Part shown: in pieces, positions 1 through 9,566 of the stretch
How the letters are laid out: every line of letters starts with the position of its first letter
Position numbering within the stretch: the stretch's first letter is position 1
Source of the DNA: Nannocystis bainbridge
GTDB taxonomy: Bacteria > Myxococcota_A > Polyangia > Nannocystales > Nannocystaceae
NCBI RefSeq assembly: GCF_028368995.1
Contig: NZ_JAQNDL010000001.1
Span: forward strand, 480,001-544,000
Reading direction: 5' to 3'
DNA: 64,000 bases
Made by a program: the position numbers and the translations under genes
Notes under the pieces: model-generated
Databases searched by the model: none
Told to the model about the DNA's origin: nothing
The model's input: only the letters and a program-made list of their open reading frames with translations

Positions 1-807
1 GCACAGGTCGGGCGCGTCCTTGTCGACGCCGATGGCGAAGCTATGGACCTCCGCGCGAGGATCGCGGGCGCGCACGAGCCGGGTAGCGAGCGCGGCGATC
101 AGGCTCGAGTCGAGCCCCCCCGACAGCAGCAACCCGAGCGGCACGTCGCTCATCAGCCGCTTCTCGACCGCGTCGCTCAGCCGCTGGCGCAGCCGAGACG
201 GATCGCCGACCTCGCCCCCCTCGCCGCGCAGCCAGGCGGGCGCGTACCAGCGACGCAGGCCGCCGCTGCGCGTCATGAGGTGGCCGGGCGGGAACACCTC
301 GAACGACACGCAATTGTCGATCAGCGCCTTGAGCTCCGACGCGAACCACAGGTTGCCGGCGCGGTCGCGGCCGTAGTAGAGCGGCTTGATGCCGATCGGG
401 TCGCGGGCGACGAGCCAATCGTCGCCATGCACGGCGGCGAAGGCGAAGATCCCGTCCAGCGCCTCGACGCACGCCTCCCCCCGCTCCTCGTAGAGATGCG
501 CGAGGACCTCGCTGTCCGAGCCGCTGACGCACTGACGTCCCGAGCCGGCGAGCTCCCGAGCGAGCGCGCGGAAGTTGTAGATCTCGCCGTTGTGGATCAC
601 CGCGGCGCCGTCACGCCCGAGGATCGGCTGCTTGCCCTGCGCGGGGTCCATGATGGCGAGTCGTCGGTGGCAGAGCACCGCGCTGCCGAGGCGCATCCAC
701 AAGCCGCTGCCGTCGGGGCCTCGATGGGCCAGCCGCGTCGCCGCCGACTCCGCGGCGGCCGCGACGTGGCCGTCGACGTTGCCGAATACTGCAATGATTC
801 CGCACAT
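1..807 (-). CDS. asnB: Asparagine synthase (glutamine-hydrolysing), partial; runs off the left edge
   Basis: Hand translation from ATG 807: MCGIIAVFG (Ntn Cys2), AHRGPD, HRRLAIMD, HNGEIYNF, ARDPIGIKPLYY, FASELKAL, LLSGGLDSS. GGAGG RBS upstream. Missing from the ORF track because there is no stop in the window. Confidence 0.95.
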   Translation of the reverse strand, partial: MCGIIAVFGNVDGHVAAAAESAATRLAHRGPDGSGLWMRLGSAVLCHRRLAIMDPAQGKQPILGRDGAAVIHNGEIYNFRALARELAGSGRQCVSGSDSEVLAHLYEERGEACVEALDGIFAFAAVHGDDWLVARDPIGIKPLYYGRDRAGNLWFASELKALIDNCVSFEVFPPGHLMTRSGGLRRWYAPAWLRGEGGEVGDPSRLRQRLSDAVEKRLMSDVPLGLLLSGGLDSSLIAALATRLVRARDPRAEVHSFAIGVDKDAPDLC

Positions 808-811
808 GTCG

Positions 812-2140
812 TCACCTCCGTTGCGCGTCGCGCAGCGCTCGCTGGTAGAAGAATTCCGGCTCACCGCCGGCCGGGCGCAGCTCGTCGAGCCAGGCCGCGC
901 GCTCGTCGTACTCGGCGAGGAAGGTGCGGCCCACCCACGCCGGATCGCGCCCCTGCAGCATCCGCAGCGAGAAGCACAGCTTCCCGTCAGACTCGACCAC
1001 GCCGTCGATGGCGACCTTCCCCGGGGTGGCCGACATGGACGGGCCGCGGGCGGTGCGACAGAGGCCCGACACATGCCGCTGCGCGTCGGTGAAGATGGCC
1101 AGCGCCCGCGCGAGCGGGACCTTGAAGTACTCCTTCGGGCCGGTGTCGCGCTCGATGAACATGTAATACGGCACCGCGCCCAGCCCCACCTGCGCCCGCC
1201 ACAACTGCGCCCATACGCCCGGATCGTCGTTGACCCGGCGGATCAGCGGCGCCTGGCAGCGGATCACCGCGCCCGTCGAGCGCACGCGCCGAATCGCCGC
1301 GATCGCGGCCGACGTCTCGAACTCGCGCGGGTGCGACGAATGAGCCATCAATGCCAGGTGCATGCCTCGCTCGTTCACCTCCTCGAACAGCCGCAAGAGG
1401 TCGTCCGCGTCCGCGTCGCTGGTGAACCGGTACGGCCAGTACGCCAGCGCCTTGGTGCCGATCCGGATGGTGGTCAGCCCGGGCAGTCGGGCCTCGAGCA
1501 GCGGCTCGATCGTGCGGCGCAGCGCCGCCGTGCGCATCACCAGCGGGTCACCGCCCGTGATGAGCACGTCCGTCACCTCCGGGTGGCGGCGCAGGTACTC
1601 CACCAGCTGTTCGGCCTCTCGCGCGGCGAACTTGAGATCGTCGAGGCCGACGAACTGCGGCCAGCGGAAGCAGTACGTACAGTACGCGTGGCACGTCTGT
1701 CCCTGCGCCGGGAAGAACAGCACGGTCTCGCGGTACTTGTGCTGCATCCCTCGCACCGCCCGGCCGTCCATCGTCGGCACGTTGAGGGTGATCTGCCCGG
1801 CCGGATGCGGGTTGAGGCCGCGCTGGATCCGCCGCACCGCCGCCTCGATCTCGCTGCCCGGCGCCTCGGCGCGCAGCAGATCGGCGACGACCTGCAGATC
1901 GCCGGCGTCCAGCATCTCGGGCTGGGGAAACGTCAATTGATAGATCGGGTCGTCGGGGACGCGCCGCCAATCGATGAGCTCTTCGAGGACGTATCGGTTG
2001 ACCCGGAACGGCAGGACGCGGGCCACTGCGGTCAACTGCAGGCGAGTGTCGGCGGGCAGCGCGGCGATCTGGGGGATCGTCGCCAGGTCGCGCAACGTGA
2101 TCGGAGCATACGTGGGTCGTGGCGGTGTGGAATCAAGCAC
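812..2140 (-). CDS. KamA-family radical SAM/PLP 2,3-aminomutase-like protein
   Basis: C-terminal part of ORF 812..3709. HKYRETVLFF, CHAYCTYCFRW (CxxxCxxC), DVLITGGDPL, IRIGTK, PYYMF, PGKV (candidate PLP Lys). GTG start at 2140 with GGAGG RBS. Confidence 0.9.
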   Translation of the reverse strand: MLDSTPPRPTYAPITLRDLATIPQIAALPADTRLQLTAVARVLPFRVNRYVLEELIDWRRVPDDPIYQLTFPQPEMLDAGDLQVVADLLRAEAPGSEIEAAVRRIQRGLNPHPAGQITLNVPTMDGRAVRGMQHKYRETVLFFPAQGQTCHAYCTYCFRWPQFVGLDDLKFAAREAEQLVEYLRRHPEVTDVLITGGDPLVMRTAALRRTIEPLLEARLPGLTTIRIGTKALAYWPYRFTSDADADDLLRLFEEVNERGMHLALMAHSSHPREFETSAAIAAIRRVRSTGAVIRCQAPLIRRVNDDPGVWAQLWRAQVGLGAVPYYMFIERDTGPKEYFKVPLARALAIFTDAQRHVSGLCRTARGPSMSATPGKVAIDGVVESDGKLCFSLRMLQGRDPAWVGRTFLAEYDERAAWLDELRPAGGEPEFFYQRALRDAQRR

Positions 2141-2182
2141 GAGGCCTCCGTGCGCGCGGCGGTCCGCGCGGACAGGACCCGG

Positions 2183-2199
2183 AGCAAGCGGTGTGCCAA
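2183..2199 (-). promoter_or_regulatory. Sigma54 (-24/-12) promoter of the kamA-like/asnB operon
   Basis: Minus strand reads TTGGCACACCGCTTGCT (GG-N10-GC with TGGCAC and TTGC), about 43 bp upstream of the GTG. A sigma54 activator gene lies nearby. Confidence 0.8.
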
Positions 2200-2282
2200 G
2201 GGTCTCGAGACCACGCCGCGGGCGGGAGCAGCCTGGATCGTCGAGCGTCGGGGACGCGCCGCGGCGAGGGTCGCGCGACCCT

Positions 2283-2315
2283 GGGAAATTTTCCCGGCGG
2301 CCCGGCAATATGCCC
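2283..2315. promoter_or_regulatory. Putative enhancer (UAS): two adjacent imperfect palindromes
   Basis: GGGAAATTTTCCC (2283-2295) and CGGCAATATGCCC (2303-2315), about 85-115 bp upstream of the sigma54 promoter. Confidence 0.5.
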
Positions 2316-2386: not shown

Positions 2387-3835
2387 ATGAACGCGTCCCC
2401 GCTCGGCTCCAAGCGCTGGCGTACGGGCTTGCTGACGACCGCGATGGTGCTCGCAATCGGCGTCATCGCCGCTCTCGGGGTGATGGACGAGCGTTCGCTG
2501 GTGTCGACGACGCGCATCGAGAGCTCTCGCGAGCCGCGCGTGCTGGCGGAGGTGCTGGCGTCGGAGTTCAGGGCCGGCCTGTCGTCGCTCGGCGGCGACG
2601 AGCCCGCGGGCGCCGGTCACGCCGAGGGCGGCGCGTGGCGCTTCGAGGACACCTCGCTGGTGATCGAGCCGCGCCAACTGCTCCACGAGGACGCGATCGC
2701 CAACGACGCCGATCACCGCCTGCTGGTGTGGGCGACCGCGACGGGGGACCCGCGGACCATCGACGGTGTGCGCGTGGACATCCCGAGCGTGGCCCACGCC
2801 GCGACGGCGGGCGAGAGCAGCGCGTGGCTGACCCCGAGCGAGGCGCATCGCCTCGGGCTGCCCGAGGAGCTCGCGGTCGCCGGCCTGTCCCGCGTCGACG
2901 ATCCGCGGTTCGGCGAGTGGATCGTCGCCGTCGTCAGCTCGACCGAACGCCAGCGCGCACGCGAGGCCCGTCGCTACGCCCGGACCATCGTCATGGTCAG
3001 CCTCGCCAGCCTCGTGGTGCTCGGCTTCGGGTTGGTCCTCCTCCGCACGCAGCGCCAGGAGCGGGCCTTCGAGCGCATGCTGGCGCGCGAGTCGATGCGG
3101 GCCCAGCAGGAGGTCCAGCTCGCCCGCGAAGGCCGCGCCGCGACCATGTTGACGTTCGCCGCCGGCATCGCCCACGAGCTGTCGACCCCGCTCGGCGTGA
3201 TCGCCATGCGCGCCGAGCAGCTCGAGAACAACGCCGACGACGATCGTGCGCGCCGCGGCGCGCGGGCGATCACCGAGCAGGTGGCGAAGATCCGGGAGAG
3301 CGCGCGCGGCTTCCTGGCGATCGCCCGCGGCGCGGCCCCGCTGCACGAGCGGTTCCCGGCCGACGACGTCCTCCGCAGCGCGGTCGCCCGCGTCGAGCAC
3401 CGGTTCGAGCGCGCCGGCGTCTCGCTGCGCGTCCAGTCGCTGTCCGGGCTGCCGTGGATCTACGGCGACGCGCGGCTGCTCGAGCACGCGTTGACGAACC
3501 TGCTGCTCAACGCGTGCGACGCGTCGCGCGTGCGCGGAGAGGTCGAACTCGGCGCGTCGCGGAGCGACTCGCAGCTCGAGATCGTGGTCAGCGATCGCGG
3601 CGGAGGCATCGATCCGGCCATCCGCGGCCGCATGCAGCCGTTCTTCAGCACCAAGGCGGAGGGCACGGGCCTCGGCCTGGCGATCGCCAGCGAGGTCATG
3701 CGCATGCACCGAGGCGAGCTCCGGCTCGACGAGCGCTCCGGCGGCGGAACGAACGCCGTGCTACGCTTGCCGGCCGAACCCATGTCCGACGATGCTCTCG
3801 CCGACGAAGCACAAGACGCGCATCCTGCTGGTTGA
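2387..3835 (+). CDS. Membrane sensor histidine kinase
   Basis: Two TM segments, H-box AGIAHELSTPL, N-box LTNLLLNACDA, G boxes DRGGGI and GTGLGL. Confidence 0.93.
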   Translation: MNASPLGSKRWRTGLLTTAMVLAIGVIAALGVMDERSLVSTTRIESSREPRVLAEVLASEFRAGLSSLGGDEPAGAGHAEGGAWRFEDTSLVIEPRQLLHEDAIANDADHRLLVWATATGDPRTIDGVRVDIPSVAHAATAGESSAWLTPSEAHRLGLPEELAVAGLSRVDDPRFGEWIVAVVSSTERQRAREARRYARTIVMVSLASLVVLGFGLVLLRTQRQERAFERMLARESMRAQQEVQLAREGRAATMLTFAAGIAHELSTPLGVIAMRAEQLENNADDDRARRGARAITEQVAKIRESARGFLAIARGAAPLHERFPADDVLRSAVARVEHRFERAGVSLRVQSLSGLPWIYGDARLLEHALTNLLLNACDASRVRGEVELGASRSDSQLEIVVSDRGGGIDPAIRGRMQPFFSTKAEGTGLGLAIASEVMRMHRGELRLDERSGGGTNAVLRLPAEPMSDDALADEAQDAHPAG

Positions 3836-5174
3836 CGACGACCTCGACATGCTCGAGGCCCTCAGCGACGGATTGACGGAGAAGGGCTTCGAGGTCGCGG
3901 CGGCGCGCTCGGCCGAGGCGGCGCTGGTGCACCTCGCGGAGGCGAACTTCGACGTGATGGTGACCGACCTGCGCATGACCGGGGCCGACGGGCTCACGCT
4001 GCTGGCCCAGGCGCGGGCCCTCAACCCGCAGCTGCCCGTGATCGTGATGACGGCCTACAGCGCGCTCGACACCGCGATCGAGGCCGTGCGCCGCGGCGCC
4101 TTCCACTACCTGGCGAAGCCGTTCCGCGTCGACGAGCTCCTCATCTTCGTCCGTCGCGCCTTCGAGGACGCCCAGCTCCGCCGTGAGGCCGAGGTGCTGC
4201 GCCACGCCCTGCGCGTCCAGCCGGGGCCGCCCGGCCTGCTCGGCGGCAGCGCGGCGATGCAGGAGCTGTTCCGCATCATCGACCGCGTCGCCGGGACGTC
4301 GGCGCCGGTCCTCATCACCGGCGAGACCGGCACCGGCAAGACCCTGGTCGCCTCCACCATCCACCAGCGCAGCGGTCGCGCCTCGGCGCCGTTGGTCGCC
4401 CTGAACTGCGCCGCGCTGCCCGAGAACTTGCTGGAGAGCGAGCTGTTCGGTCACGTGCGTGGGGCGTTCAGCGGGGCCACCTCCAGCTCCGCCGGTCTGT
4501 TCTCTGCCGCCGACGGCGGCAGCATCCTGCTCGACGAGATCGGCGAGATGGTGCTGCCGATGCAGGCCAAGCTGCTGCACGTGATCGAGCGCGGCGCGGT
4601 CCGCCCGATCGGCGGCACAAAGGAGCGGCCGATCGACGTCCGGATCCTCGCCGCCACCAACCGCGACCTCGAGCAGGCCGTCCGCGACGGGCGGTTCCGC
4701 GAGGATCTGCTGTACCGCCTCAACCTCGTCGTGCTCGAGCTGCCGCCGCTGCGCGAGCGCACCGGGGACCTGCCGGAGCTCATCGACCATTTCCTCGACA
4801 AGGCCCGGGCGCGCTACCCCGACAGCCCGGTCCGCAGCTTCTCTCTCGCGGCCCTCGAGCGGCTCCTCGCCCACCCGTGGCCCGGCAACGTCCGCGAGCT
4901 GTCCCACACCATCGAGCGTCTGATCCTGCTCGGTCACGGGGCGACGATCGAGGTGGCCGACCTGCCTCGCAGCTTCAACACGCCCCCGGACGCGCACCCG
5001 GCGTTCGACGCGATCGTGCCGATGCGAGAGATGCAGCGCCGATACGCCACCTGGGTGCTGGAGCAGGTCGACGGCATCCGCGCGCACGCAGCCCGCCGCC
5101 TCGGCATCGACGTCAAGACCCTGGGGCGGCTGCTCAGCGCGCAGGAGCCTGCGGACCTCGACATGAAAGAATGA
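3792..5174 (+). CDS. Sigma54-dependent response regulator (REC-AAA+-Fis HTH)
   Basis: [59 protein letters not shown]-terminal HTH. Confidence 0.95.
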
Positions 5175-5330: not shown

Positions 5331-7763
5331 TCAGGGCTTCGGCGGCGGGGCGAGCCCGGCCCACTCCTGGAGGGCCTGGATGGCCCGGGCGTCGAATTTC
5401 GGCGCGTCGCCGCCGAGCACGGGCTGGCGCACGCACGCGTCGCTGTGCTGGCACAGGTGGGCCGAGAAGAGGTCGGGCAGGATGAGGCCGTCGGCGGCGG
5501 TGCAGCGGCAGCCCGACCCACCGGTCATCTTCGCCGCGCCGTCGCTGCACTTCATGGCCGCGCAGCCGGTCGGGGACGTCGCCTGCGCCCGCGCCTGCAG
5601 CGTGCCGGCGTCGCCGACGGCGACGCCCACCCCCGCGGCGTGCAGGCAGCTCATGAATGCCTGCCCCGAGGCGGTGCTCGGGCCCTCCGCGGGCGGCGTG
5701 AGCCCCGGGGAGGGGGTGAGCCCGCCGCTCTTCGGCAGCGGCTTGTCCGTGCCAGGGCGGCAGGCCATGAACTCGGCGACCGCCGCCGCCGCCGCGCCGC
5801 AGCGACCCGGCCCATCGATCCCCGGCCGGCGGTTGCGCCCGCCCTTGCCCTGCGTCCGCCGCCGCTGCTCGGCCTCGGCCTCCTCGCCGACGAGGTCGAG
5901 GTAGCGCTCGACGTAGCCCCCGCGCAGCGACGCGCGGGTGGCCGCGTGCCCGTCGGCCTCGTTGAAGCGGACCCGCACGTCGCCCTGGGTGAGCTCGGCC
6001 GCGTACATCGCGTTCATCGTATTGGCGACGACGTGCACCGCCTCGTGCTCGAGCGTCGACTGCATCGTGCCGACGTCGGGGTGCACGTCGCGGTCGATGG
6101 TGATCCGATTGGTGGCGTCGTCGGTGATCCCGGCCGCGCCGTGGACATCCTTGCCGGCGATCCGGTCGAGCGACGCGGTCTCGACCGCTCTGGCCGCGGC
6201 CTCGGCCAGGATCTTGCCGTCCTTGGCGACGCGCTCGCGCAGCCCCTGGTAGTAATCCGCGCGCTCCTTGGGGAACTTCGAGCCGTCGATGGCGTGGTTG
6301 AGGCGCTCGCGGGACTCGGCCGCCGAGATGGTGTCCTGCGCGGCCTTGACGACGTACTTCTCGCCCTCCTTGGTGCGCAGCCAGTCGGCCGAGCGCTTGC
6401 GGGCCGTCGCGAAGTCGAGCTCGGTCTCGTCGACGGTGCCGCTGCTGCTCTCGGGGCCCGCCGGTTGGTCGCCGACGGTCCGGGGATCGCCGCAGCCGCC
6501 CTCGCCGTAGAACCCGCGCACCGGCAGGTCCTTGCCCTGCGGCAGCTTGCCGACCTCGAAGCTCTTCTTGCTCATCGCCTGCGCCAGGGTGCAGGCGCTC
6601 GTGGTCATCTGCCACGAGGCGACCACGGCGGCCGTGGCGGCGCAGCTCCCGATCGAGGTGCCCTTGCCGGTCGCGCCGAAGGGCCCGGGCCCACTCCCGC
6701 CGCCGGCGGACGCTCCGCCGCCGCCGCCCCCCTTGCCCTTGCCGCCGCCGCTGCCGCCCGCGCCCGAGCAGTTGCTGGCCCGCAGGGCGTCGCTCTTGAG
6801 GCCGAAGGGCGTGTGGTCGCCGCGGCCGCCCGGCAGCTTCGTCTCGCCCGTCGCGCAGCCGAGCCCGCGGCCGCAGGCCGGGCTGCCGCCGGCCTCGGCC
6901 GTCGCCAGCATCTCCGAGAAGCCGCACGCGCCGGCGCCGATGTTGCGGTCGCGCAGCAGCTCGACGAGGCGCAGGTCGACCACGTCGGCGCGCCGGCCGA
7001 TCATCTCGCCGCGGAGCGGGTCGAACAGGTACACGCTCTGCTTGTCGCCCGCGAGCGCCGCGGCGACCTCGGGGGCGACCGCCTGGGCCCACCGGTGCGC
7101 GGCGTTCGGGCCGGCGTGCTTGGCCAGGTCGACCGTGAGCAGCACGAGGTTGAACACGGCCACGCGAAAGTTGGCGAGGCCCGACTTGCCGAAGCCGTCG
7201 CCCTGCAGGCTCGCCTCGTACTGGCGCAGCGCGTGGCCGAGGATGTCGGTCCAGGCGGCGACCTGCCAGGCGGTGAGGCAGTTGAGCGCGTTCTGGTACT
7301 CGCTCAGCACGAGCATCGCCGCGAGCTCGTCCTTCGTCGCCAGCGCGGCGGCGTAGCGCGCGAAGTGGCGGCCGAGCCCGACCTCGGCCCGGCACTCGGC
7401 GCGGTCGCGCAGCTCGAGCCGCTCGGTCGCCCACGGCCGGTAGCGCGCCGCGCCCTGCAGCAGCGCCGAGAAGTCGAGGCCGGTGACGGCCCGCTGCATC
7501 GCCGCGTCGCCCTGCAGCGCGACCTCGGGCACGGTCCGACGCGCGAGCGAGCGGTAGGTCTTGACGCGCTTCCTGACGGCGTCGGTCATCGGCCTGGCGC
7601 CGGGGAAGCCGCGCAACGACCCGGCGATCTGGCGGTCGAGCGCCTCCATCTGCTGCACCTGTTCGCCCAGGCTCGCCGGCGCCGCCTCGGCGCGCGCGCT
7701 CACGGTCCACGCCAGGAGCAGCGCGACGCCGCTCCACCCACTGCTCGCAATTCGTCGTCGCAT
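5331..7763 (-). CDS. Large secreted hypothetical protein with HExxH motif
   Basis: Signal peptide MRRRIASSGWSGVALLLAWTVSARA, high GC3, Gly-rich hinge, STLEHEAVH, Cys-rich C-terminus. Confidence 0.75.
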   Translation of the reverse strand: MRRRIASSGWSGVALLLAWTVSARAEAAPASLGEQVQQMEALDRQIAGSLRGFPGARPMTDAVRKRVKTYRSLARRTVPEVALQGDAAMQRAVTGLDFSALLQGAARYRPWATERLELRDRAECRAEVGLGRHFARYAAALATKDELAAMLVLSEYQNALNCLTAWQVAAWTDILGHALRQYEASLQGDGFGKSGLANFRVAVFNLVLLTVDLAKHAGPNAAHRWAQAVAPEVAAALAGDKQSVYLFDPLRGEMIGRRADVVDLRLVELLRDRNIGAGACGFSEMLATAEAGGSPACGRGLGCATGETKLPGGRGDHTPFGLKSDALRASNCSGAGGSGGGKGKGGGGGGASAGGGSGPGPFGATGKGTSIGSCAATAAVVASWQMTTSACTLAQAMSKKSFEVGKLPQGKDLPVRGFYGEGGCGDPRTVGDQPAGPESSSGTVDETELDFATARKRSADWLRTKEGEKYVVKAAQDTISAAESRERLNHAIDGSKFPKERADYYQGLRERVAKDGKILAEAAARAVETASLDRIAGKDVHGAAGITDDATNRITIDRDVHPDVGTMQSTLEHEAVHVVANTMNAMYAAELTQGDVRVRFNEADGHAATRASLRGGYVERYLDLVGEEAEAEQRRRTQGKGGRNRRPGIDGPGRCGAAAAAVAEFMACRPGTDKPLPKSGGLTPSPGLTPPAEGPSTASGQAFMSCLHAAGVGVAVGDAGTLQARAQATSPTGCAAMKCSDGAAKMTGGSGCRCTAADGLILPDLFSAHLCQHSDACVRQPVLGGDAPKFDARAIQALQEWAGLAPPPKP

Positions 7764-8123
7764 GTCGACTCCTCGACCCGCTCGGGGGCCGCCGCGACAA
7801 CGTCGATTCGCCGCCGTCTTCCCGCGGTCGGGTAAAAAAATCGCCGGCGCGGGGGCCACGGCGCGCCGGCGAGCCGAATCGCGCAGACGCGAGGCGTGGC
7901 ATGCACGAATCCGGGTGTGCATATTCACCGTCGCGGGCCCGCCGCGCCGCGGAATCGCGCGCGGGCGATGGCGGCGGTGGTGTGGCGGCCGTCGCCGGCC
8001 GCGAGTCAATGCGTGGACCGACTCGGTGCATCCTCCCGTGCGCTCAAGGCGCTGGAGAGCGGATGGCGTCGCGCCTCCGCCCACGTCTACGTGGTCGGAT
8101 GACAGGACGAATCTCTGCCCCGC

Positions 8124-9359
8124 TCACTGCTGCACGCAGTAGAGCGCCGATTTCCACGAGCATTTTCCGCTCGTGCACCACTTCGTCCAGCTTTGGTTGA
8201 CCGCGTCGGCGTGGCCCCAGTACGCATTCGCGGTCTCCGACTGCCAATTCTCGCACGTGTCGTGGATCCACGACAGCGTGCCGTCGGCGGAGGTCCCGGT
8301 GTAGACGGTGGCATAACCACCACCGGCGCAGATGGTGTCGCCGATCGGCGCCGGGCCGCCGAGCTCGGTGACATTGATGGGAGCGTCGAGCGAATTGTCG
8401 GTGAGGTCGGCCCAGTCGTCGGCGACCTTGGTGCCGTTGGGCAGCACGTAGGGCACGTCGGCGTGGGTCATGCGCGAGGCGGGCGAGGCGGCGACGTCGC
8501 TGAGCCACGCCAGGTAGGTCCCTGGCAAACCGGCGGCGTCGGCGAGCTGCTGGCACCTGGCGTCGCCGCCGGCGAGGCCGCCGAGGTTGCCGGTGTACAT
8601 CTGGCTGGTGACGAAGACGAGCTTCTGCGCCGCGGTGACGCTGCAGTCGCTCTCGCAGCCGTCGCCATCGGCCCCGTTGCCGTCGTCGCACGCCTCGGCG
8701 CCGGCCCAGACCAGGCCGTCGCCGCACTCGGCGTGTTTGCAGGCGATGGTGCACGCGTCGGTGTCGACCGCGTTGGCGTCGTCGCAGTCCTCGGCGCCGT
8801 CGCGGACCTGGCCGTCGCCGCAGCTCGCGGCCTTGCAGGTGGACAGGCACGCGTCGGTGTCGTCCATGTCGCCGTCGTCGCAGTCCTCGCCGGGCTGGAC
8901 GAGGCCGTCGCCGCAGCTCGCGGGGGCGCACAGGTTGCTGCACGCGTCGTCGTCGATCGCATTGCCATCGTCGCACTGCTCGCCCGGGCCGAGGAGGCCG
9001 TCGCCGCAGGTCGCGTGCTCGCAGGCGCTGGTGCAGGCGTCCGTGTCGTCGGCGTTGCCGTCGTCGCACGCTTCGCCGTCGTCGAGTTTGCCGTCGCCGC
9101 AGACCGGGCTGGCGGGGTCAGGGGTCGAGGTGGAGGTGAACGGGTCGCCCGTCGTCGGGCTCTCCGGGTCGGTGTCGATCCCCGAGGTCGCGGTCGGCAC
9201 GCCCGTCGAGCTCGTCGTGGTCGACGTCGTGGCGGTGGCCTCGGTCGTCGTGGTCGACGGAGAGAGACCCTCGGTGCCCGCATCGCCGTCTCCGCAGGCC
9301 CCGCTGACGGCCAGGAGCATCACGCCGCCGAGCGCCACACCGCTCCGGTGTCTCTGCAT
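8124..9359 (-). CDS. Lipoprotein with Myxococcus Cys-rich (DUF4215-type) repeats and a C-terminal DUF1554-like domain
   Basis: Lipobox LLAVSGAC, Thr/Ser linker, five CGDG..E.CDDG repeats, then [22 protein letters not shown]...AWLSD...LYCVQQ. Alternative start 9419. Confidence 0.85.
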
Positions 9360-9566
9360 TCGCGGAGCAGAGGGCGATGCGACGAGGGCAAACGAGCGAA
9401 GGAGGAAGTTGCTGGACATGGTGGGCTGCAGGACACCCGGGCTGTCCGTGATCGCACGGCTCCGGGGTGGTGAGAAAGGATGGACGAGCCACGCGCCGGA
9501 CGGGCGCTCACCGCAAGGACGCAGCGAGGAGCCCGACCGTCTCACGAAATCTTTGGGCGCCCTGAC

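Follow-up and report, generated by a model that had tools for sequence, protein, structure and literature searches.

The closest well-described relative of the gene treated here is lysine 2,3-aminomutase (KamA), in which two aspartate residues, in the motifs YYxYQCD and VVDAPGGGGK, bind the epsilon-amine of the substrate lysine and which carries a zinc site in its C-terminal part. Glutamate 2,3-aminomutase (Eam) is said, in work credited to Ruzicka and Frey in 2007, to have lysine and asparagine at the same two positions. Passages of PMC9337991 tie eam and ablA to the salt response through Na+ riboswitches, and passages of PMC11284099 describe a glutamate aminomutase, IdnL4, that supplies beta-glutamate for incednine biosynthesis, so aminomutase chemistry is put to use in both ways. 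The abl operon joins AblA, a lysine aminomutase, to the acetyltransferase AblB, and the beta-glutamine of methanogens is made by a glutamine synthetase, as outlined in part of PMC1224877. We analysed a 64,000-nucleotide stretch of the Nannocystis bainbridge genome (contig NZ_JAQNDL010000001.1, forward-strand positions 480,001 to 544,000; hereafter the window), in which a KamA-family radical S-adenosylmethionine (SAM) and pyridoxal phosphate (PLP) aminomutase-like gene, kam1, is followed by an asparagine synthetase gene, asnB. The genome measures 11 Mb at a completeness of 90%. The reading we favour, with rather less than even confidence, is that Kam1 is a working PLP/radical-SAM 2,3-aminomutase whose substrate is an amino acid other than lysine, probably an acidic one, most likely converting glutamate to beta-glutamate, and that it is expressed together with asnB under sigma-54 control.

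Kam1 matched KamA-family models and no others, and fell below all six cut-offs. Against the general model TIGR00238 it scored 123.4 bits (cut-off 199.2), with its paralogue Kam2 at 131 bits; the scores were 106 bits (525.4) for lysine 2,3-aminomutase (TIGR03820), 97.7 bits (369.3) for EpmB, 83.9 bits (650) for Eam (TIGR04368) and 83.1 bits (600) for arginine 2,3-aminomutase. Eight sequences of other subfamilies were scanned in the same way and all passed TIGR00238, with 225–401 bits. The Pfam scan gave only a sub-threshold Radical_SAM match and found no LAM_C domain (PF12544). The sole sequence match in the PDB was the lysine 2,3-aminomutase of Clostridium subterminale (2A5H; E = 2.6e-21, or 6e-27 with a 33-sequence profile), to which Kam1 is approximately 22–23% identical.

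Alignment and structure prediction together show that Kam1 has kept the KamA fold along its whole length, with the putative iron–sulphur cysteines, the SAM motif, the arginine for the alpha-carboxylate and the lysine for PLP. The CxxxCxxC [4Fe-4S] and GGD motifs are in register with those of KamA, Eam and the other subfamilies, Lys375 aligns with the lysine of GGGGK and Arg159 with the arginine of CxxC-T-R, and the Q and H/N-D motifs are shared with KamA. From the literature on the KamA structure we take Lys375 to be the PLP lysine and Arg159 the arginine that binds the alpha-carboxylate. Across 33 clade members the residues C150, C154, C157, R159, G196-G197-D198, Q296, E330-R331-D332 and K375 are invariant without exception. 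An AlphaFold model built on 33 relatives (predicted local distance difference test score 88.5) had 2A5H as its top structural match in Foldseek (E = 1e-18, template modelling score 0.63–0.67 over 431 columns), whereas other radical SAM enzymes matched only the core, with a template modelling score of ~0.3. Kam1 differs from KamA in a two-residue insertion before the first cluster cysteine and in a clade-specific NPHPAGQ block. The C-terminal part also differs: no C-terminal cysteine that could mark the zinc site is invariant across the 33 members, in which the three cluster-ligand cysteines are the only invariant ones.

The most telling difference lies in the substrate pocket. The lysine-binding aspartate pair, a feature of TIGR03820, is replaced in Kam1 by Arg331 (in YYMFIERD) at the column of the YYxYQCD aspartate (Asp293) and by Ser368 (in PSMSATPGK) at that of the VVDAPGGGGK aspartate. 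The comparison set was drawn from Bacillota genomes and comprised six Eam genes scoring above the TIGR04368 cut-off, four genes of the KamA type and members of other subfamilies; the two other KamA-family genes of the Nannocystis genome were added to it. The position of Arg331 was agreed by phmmer, by the 33-sequence profile against 2A5H and by two MAFFT alignments; those of Ser368, and of Lys375 at the PLP lysine, were given by the two MAFFT alignments, the only ones to reach that far. An initial annotation of this DNA had placed arginine and serine at the two KamA aspartates by manual alignment, and the alignments with real sequences bear it out; the Lys/Asn signature that it gave for Eam is present in the six genomic Eam sequences. 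The motifs at the two columns are as follows.

KamA-type: first column YYxYQCD, second column VVDAPGGGGK, pair D/D.
Eam (six genomic sequences): first column YYIFHAK, second column YIINAPxGxGK, pair K/N.
Kam1 clade: first column YYMF(I/V)ER, second column RGPSMSAxPGK, pair R/S.

Arg331 and the flanking Glu330 and Asp332 do not vary among the 33 clade members, at least 90% of which also keep Ser368. Arg331, between its two acidic neighbours, and Ser368 take the place of the aspartates that hold the lysine epsilon-amine, and because this pair is replaced Kam1 would be expected to move the alpha-amino group of an amino acid other than lysine, one with an anionic or strongly polar group at the end of its side chain. 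In Eam, as in the Kam1 clade, the aspartate pair is replaced and the residue at the first position is cationic (lysine in Eam, arginine in Kam1). It is the Lys/Asn pair of the Eam sequences at these columns that associates a cationic first residue with an acidic substrate, and on this basis we propose an acidic substrate for Kam1. The initial annotation had likewise argued from the pocket against lysine and for an acidic substrate, and this stands in part: the residues are conserved, they argue against lysine, and a cationic residue fits an acidic substrate as the lysine of Eam does, but the clade is no relative of Eam and occupies a separate long branch.

That branch was resolved in a maximum-likelihood tree of 30 sequences, in which the Kam1 clade is monophyletic (support 100, branch length 2.5 changes per site) and stands apart from the cluster containing KamA and Eam. 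It is sister, with support of 98 at a point where long branches meet, to a Bacillota group that we term 'R-type'. Kam1 was considered as a member of the Eam family and rejected: its pocket is R/S and not K/N (the second position being asparagine in Eam and serine in Kam1), it scores 83.9 bits against a cut-off of 650, and Eam forms its own clade nested beside KamA. Kam1 is thus neither a lysine 2,3-aminomutase nor an Eam-family member. The R-type proteins, for example that of Thermaerobacter marianensis, resemble the Kam1 clade in having an arginine at the Asp293 column and a (V/S)MSH..GK loop, but they are 360–420 amino acids long, pass TIGR00238 (225–243 bits) and have NRP instead of ERD. 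They come from spore-forming Bacillota, none of which is known to accumulate beta-glutamate, and so offer no clue to the substrate. In T. marianensis the R-type gene is flanked by four YheC/D ATP-grasp genes (L126:3743-10813), and the subfamily is widespread in spore-forming Bacillota. Two further Bacillota genomes (G270 and G360; loci L121 and L122) encode 618-amino-acid KamA-family proteins with an N-terminal extension of ~200 amino acids and a Lys/Asn pocket like that of Eam, which fall on a very long separate branch of the tree.

The clade itself is a large, uncharacterised and deeply divergent branch of the KamA family. A word-based protein search returned at least 8000 database matches, the best 120 of which are all at least 64% identical, and an exhaustive search gave 332 clusters (50% identity) at E ≤ 1e-30. 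Scanning species genomes yielded at least 590 clade loci, from which 80 were kept (53–91% identical to Kam1), 78 of them from outside Nannocystis (53–67%). The kept loci come from Myxococcota, Planctomycetota, Acidobacteriota, Verrucomicrobiota, Chloroflexota, Actinomycetota, Gemmatimonadota, Chlorobiota and Bacillota, and also from Idiomarina and Rhodopseudomonas palustris BisB18. Within Myxococcota the distribution is patchy (8 of 251 genomes), and in that survey the clade was absent from the one other genus of the Nannocystis family. Relatives at 35–45% identity have lost the R-D dyad, three of them lacking the cysteine motif as well. The full-length proteins P0255, P0329 and P0366 (28–44% identity) have no CxxxCxxC cysteines and in part no PLP lysine; they may be non-catalytic descendants. 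Our literature search, which left supplements aside, found nothing on the clade or on the pairing of kamA-like genes with asnB.

Glutamate is our leading candidate for the substrate, both because the first pocket column carries the lysine in Eam and because one enzyme could make beta-glutamate with no partner. The likeliest reaction would then be L-glutamate to beta-glutamate, a pathway of a single enzyme, which fits with the lack of any universal neighbour described below. The distribution is consistent with this reading in one family: the clade occurs in 103 of the 121 genomes of the family (Streptosporangiaceae-level) of Nocardiopsis chromatogenes, including all seven of its genus, and beta-glutamate is accumulated by Nocardiopsis halophila, according to passages in PMC1224877 and PMC5884947. 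Two gene neighbourhoods were also taken as consistent with beta-glutamate. In a Chlorobiaceae metagenome-assembled genome (MAG) the clade member is immediately preceded, on its own strand, by a gene for an MscS-type mechanosensitive channel, and a second radical SAM gene lies downstream (L071:1814-4372). In R. palustris BisB18 the clade member is followed by a class-III (omega/beta-type) aminotransferase that reads in two overlapping frames and is preceded by two 2-hydroxyacyl-CoA-dehydratase/benzoyl-CoA-reductase-like subunits and an activase (L039:4049-10658); these genes may serve the breakdown of amino acids under anaerobic conditions. No Rfam riboswitch family reached its gathering score in nine lower-GC loci totalling 110 kb.

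The arrangement of kam1 and its surroundings in the window is listed below, with positions counted from the first nucleotide of the window.

1..807, minus strand: 5' part of asnB (269 codons), identified by its NF006949 score, alignment with 1CT9, MCG N-terminus and SGGLDSS PP-loop.
808..819, minus strand: 4-nucleotide spacer (808-811), TGA stop codon of the kamA-like gene (812-814) and GGAGG ribosome-binding site of asnB (815-819), read directly.
812..2140, minus strand: kam1, KamA-family radical SAM/PLP aminomutase-like gene of 442 amino acids (protein P0001), with GTG start and TGA stop.
2145..2149, minus strand: GGAGG ribosome-binding site of kam1, 4 nucleotides 5' of the GTG, read directly and kept in N. 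exedens.
2184..2198, minus strand: sigma-54 -24/-12 element TGGCAC-N5-TTGC, TGGCACACCGCTTGC, an exact match 43 nucleotides before the kam1 start codon.
2280..2297, no strand assigned: palindrome CCTGGGAAATTTTCCCGG, ~115 nucleotides upstream of the expected start site, in a block common to both Nannocystis species.
2387..3835, plus strand: membrane sensor histidine kinase, divergent from kam1 (HisKA, HATPase_c).
3792..5174, plus strand: NtrC-type sigma-54-dependent response regulator (Response_reg; Sigma54_activat, 222 bits; AAA lid).

The full asnB gene encodes 536 amino acids (L005:11197-12807), with 804 nucleotides extending past the start of the window. Its ATG lies at 807-805 with the GGAGG 7 nucleotides upstream, and the 4 nucleotides that the initial annotation had counted between the end of the kamA-like gene and asnB are indeed what separates stop codon and ATG. 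The operon structure of kam1 and asnB is evidenced by this gap and the ribosome-binding site. The same annotation had put both genes behind a consensus sigma-54 promoter, and the element is exact and conserved: besides TGGCACACCGCTTGC, at 2198-2184, the 64 kb hold no exact TGGCAC-N5-TTGC (0.10 expected; at least one in 9 of 100 shuffles), and the element is kept in N. exedens, 46 nucleotides before the kam1 orthologue (L007 7941-7955). With one mismatch allowed, the window holds 2 such elements against 3.08 expected, which is no enrichment. A GG-N10-GC element at the proper distance from the gene is thus found together with a nearby gene for an NtrC-type activator. We propose that kam1 and asnB are co-transcribed from this promoter, that the adjacent kinase and NtrC-type regulator presumably drive it, and that the palindrome at 2280-2297 is a candidate activator-binding site. 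RNA-library runs covered shares of only 0.05–0.06 of the stretch, and their contigs were short pieces from relatives with 90–95% likeness.

Beyond asnB, on the same strand and just past the window start, lies a gene for a double-domain PPOX/FMN flavoprotein (TIGR04025, 222 bits; L005:10042-11085), and farther out come a P450 gene, the gene of a TetR regulator and that of a DHA2 efflux pump. In N. exedens no such flavoprotein gene was found downstream. On the other side of the regulatory genes, the list of open reading frames includes a minus-strand frame at 8124-9545 with a Thr/Ser-rich N-terminal stretch and repeated Cys-rich 'CGDG..DDGN..DTDAC' units, and beside it a 917-amino-acid minus-strand frame at 5331-8084 with an HEAVH motif.

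The second gene of the operon looks, by its sequence, like a normal aspartate-amidating asparagine synthetase. AsnB scored 621 bits against NF006949 (cut-off 499) and aligned along its full length with E. coli AsnB (1CT9; E = 1e-136, residues 23-513), and the MCGI start with its N-terminal cysteine, the SGGLDSS PP-loop and the TIRAS, SGEGSDExFGGYLYF, D..R..K, GVEARVPFLD and RQKEQFSDG segments are all conserved. The synthetase-site motifs, SGEGSDExFGGYLYF, D..R..K and RQKEQFSDG included, are identical to those of E. coli AsnB. The genome encodes AsnRS (asparaginyl-tRNA synthetase; 610 bits) and gave no match to AsnA at its 90% completeness, so the cell needs an asparagine synthetase and an ordinary role for AsnB is the simpler reading. 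The likeliest part for AsnB would be asparagine synthesis within a regulator-controlled amino-acid module.

A more elaborate scheme, which builds on the initial annotation, has Kam1 make beta-glutamate and the linked AsnBs turn this into beta-glutamine by amidation. The product would be zwitterionic, either a compatible solute or a store of nitrogen, and the pathway would be under sigma-54/NtrC-type control. The scheme shares with the abl operon and the methanogen route the concept that an aminomutase product is neutralised to a zwitterionic solute by a second enzyme, and beta-glutamate bears the same CH(NH2)-CH2-COOH arm that AsnB adenylates in aspartate, as we reason from the chemistry. Only two genes in the Nannocystis genome pass the AsnB cut-off, and both adjoin kam paralogues, one co-directional with the 4-nucleotide gap and the other divergent. 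These AsnBs also form a divergent subgroup, scoring 620–624 bits against 750–920 for most of the 27 other myxobacterial AsnBs above the cut-off, and a search of five other myxobacterial genomes, the sister genus included, turned up no AsnB of the Nannocystis type; some change of specificity is possible on these grounds. Against the scheme stand the canonical synthetase site and the asparagine synthetase that the cell would otherwise lack. The described route to beta-glutamine uses glutamine synthetase, in the passages of PMC1224877 cited above, whereas here the second gene encodes a canonical AsnB and neither an acetyltransferase nor a glutamine synthetase, and the coupling is confined to one genus. 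We consider the scheme as a whole unlikely, with amidation of a beta-amino acid product by AsnB a minority possibility; the beta-glutamine step is speculative, if chemically neat, and draws some support from AsnB-family neighbours in four lineages.

Those neighbours emerged from a survey of 8 kb around the gene in the 80 kept loci, with all-against-all clustering of open reading frames, to which seven further Myxococcota loci were added. AsnB relatives were present in four of the 80: the two Nannocystis loci (93% and 68% identical), Polyangium fumosum L009, where a TIGR01536-type gene lies 64 nucleotides downstream of the clade member, and a Streptosporangiales MAG (L086), which encodes a 703-amino-acid relative. 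The other 76 had none within the 8 kb. One of the seven further loci, from a myxobacterium (L092), has a Polyangium-type AsnB-family gene adjacent, so that AsnB-family genes of three subtypes flank the clade in four lineages. Turning the question round, none of 80 metagenome loci of AsnB relatives carries an aminomutase, these relatives being at most 56% identical and too distant to represent the Nannocystis subtype, and across the 251 Myxococcota genomes AsnB proper shows no association with the clade, being present in 1 of 8 clade-positive genomes and 28 of 243 others. The pairing of kam genes with AsnB proper is confined to Nannocystis. The initial annotation had treated a pairing not conserved in other genomes as fatal to its idea; the survey goes part of the way towards that outcome, with AsnB-family flanks in the four lineages left on the other side.

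No partner family was general to the 80 loci within the 8 kb, and only lineage-specific partners were found; an apparent neighbour cluster of 76 loci proved to be an antisense-frame artefact of the clade gene itself. The commonest partner is a class-I aminotransferase. Its gene was present at 7 of the 80 loci, at four of which it comes immediately after the clade gene, and it also comes immediately after it at 3 of the 7 further Myxococcota loci. Together with AsnB, this partner could point to a substrate of the aspartate family or one with a zwitterionic or amide tail, namely asparagine (giving isoasparagine), glutamine (giving beta-glutamine), 2-aminoadipate or diaminopimelate. The clade's hallmark pair Arg331-Asp332, with Glu330, would then read a carboxamide or amino-carboxylate end, and the aminotransferase, which is AspAT-like (AspAT, aspartate aminotransferase), and AsnB would supply the substrate. 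Operons of a kam gene with the aminotransferase occur in seven loci (L027, L035, L041, L050, L087, L088 and L091), and an aminotransferase orthologue is present in 7 of the 8 clade-positive Myxococcota genomes vs 16 of the 243 clade-negative ones (Fisher 1.6e-7, the genomes being related and not independent). The two partners also meet in the second Nannocystis cluster (G000:C2:2689820-2694501; L006:5817-10501), where kam2 (69% identity with kam1) and asnB2 (AsnB-model score 624 bits) diverge and asnB2 overlaps a class-I aminotransferase gene by 20 nucleotides, opposite kam2; no exact sigma-54 element was found at this cluster. Set against this, the aminotransferase orthologue was not found in any of five clade-positive genomes of other phyla (best 37% identity), it stands alone with no shared neighbour in 16 further loci, and its database names are only generic. 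To our knowledge none of the asparagine, glutamine, 2-aminoadipate or diaminopimelate reactions is catalysed by any KamA-family enzyme, and we regard such a substrate as improbable. Other neighbours were single cases: an IclR gene with a branched-chain-type ABC (ATP-binding cassette) transporter at one Chloroflexota locus, and short-chain dehydrogenases.

Glutamate as the substrate of Kam1, the reading we prefer, also has several points against it. The clade is not sister to Eam, and its sister, the R-type subfamily, is likewise uncharacterised. The link to Nocardiopsis is correlative. The commonest partner is an aminotransferase, and a dedicated one is unnecessary for a substrate as abundant as glutamate. 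The low scores of the Nannocystis AsnBs, and the failure to find their type in five relatives, count against the plain asparagine synthetase that we attach to this reading. Finally, Glu330 and Asp332 beside Arg331 could bind a cationic or zwitterionic tail, and two single cases point towards amines: metagenome protein P0246 joins the clade domain to an N-hydroxylase of the Lys/Orn-monooxygenase family, and P0390 joins it to a class-III aminotransferase end, a GABA/Lys-6-transaminase-like fragment (GABA, gamma-aminobutyrate). In a third metagenome protein, P0374, the clade domain is joined to a 2Fe-2S ferredoxin domain. Each of the three is a single-member cluster, and they may be either genuine fusions or separate genes run together in gene calling.

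The same observations could be read to mean that Kam1 has kept a basic substrate, be it lysine, ornithine or arginine, whose cationic tail is bound by the invariant Glu330 and Asp332, in keeping with the database label of lysine 2,3-aminomutase. That label is automatic, as are the names given to the clade in the Protein Atlas and the databases ('lysine 2,3-aminomutase / KamA family'). Moreover, the four independent alignments put an arginine, and not an acid, at the Asp293 column, and a KamA-type gene with the D/D pair is already present in the Nannocystis genome, as is one of the AblA_like_2 type. A basic substrate is for these reasons less likely, and we give it little credence.

The most far-reaching version of these ideas would make the clade a second, independently evolved glutamate 2,3-aminomutase with an Arg/Ser pocket, the source of beta-glutamate in aerobes such as Nocardiopsis, whose product the Nannocystis AsnB paralogues would carry on to beta-glutamine under a sigma-54 two-component switch. 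We think this a long shot; if true, it would be a bacterial route to beta-glutamine unlike the archaeal one through glutamine synthetase. Few specificities have been assigned in the KamA family (lysine, glutamate, arginine and the beta-lysine of EF-P), and the Kam1 clade lies below every curated model, which leaves its database label of lysine 2,3-aminomutase unfounded. The substrate could conveniently be established in Nannocystis, where the operon has a predicted sigma-54 switch and linked genes for AsnB and the aminotransferase. Assignment of the substrate would add a new aminomutase specificity and correct thousands of annotations, and it could reveal a bacterial source of beta-glutamate or of another beta-amino acid.

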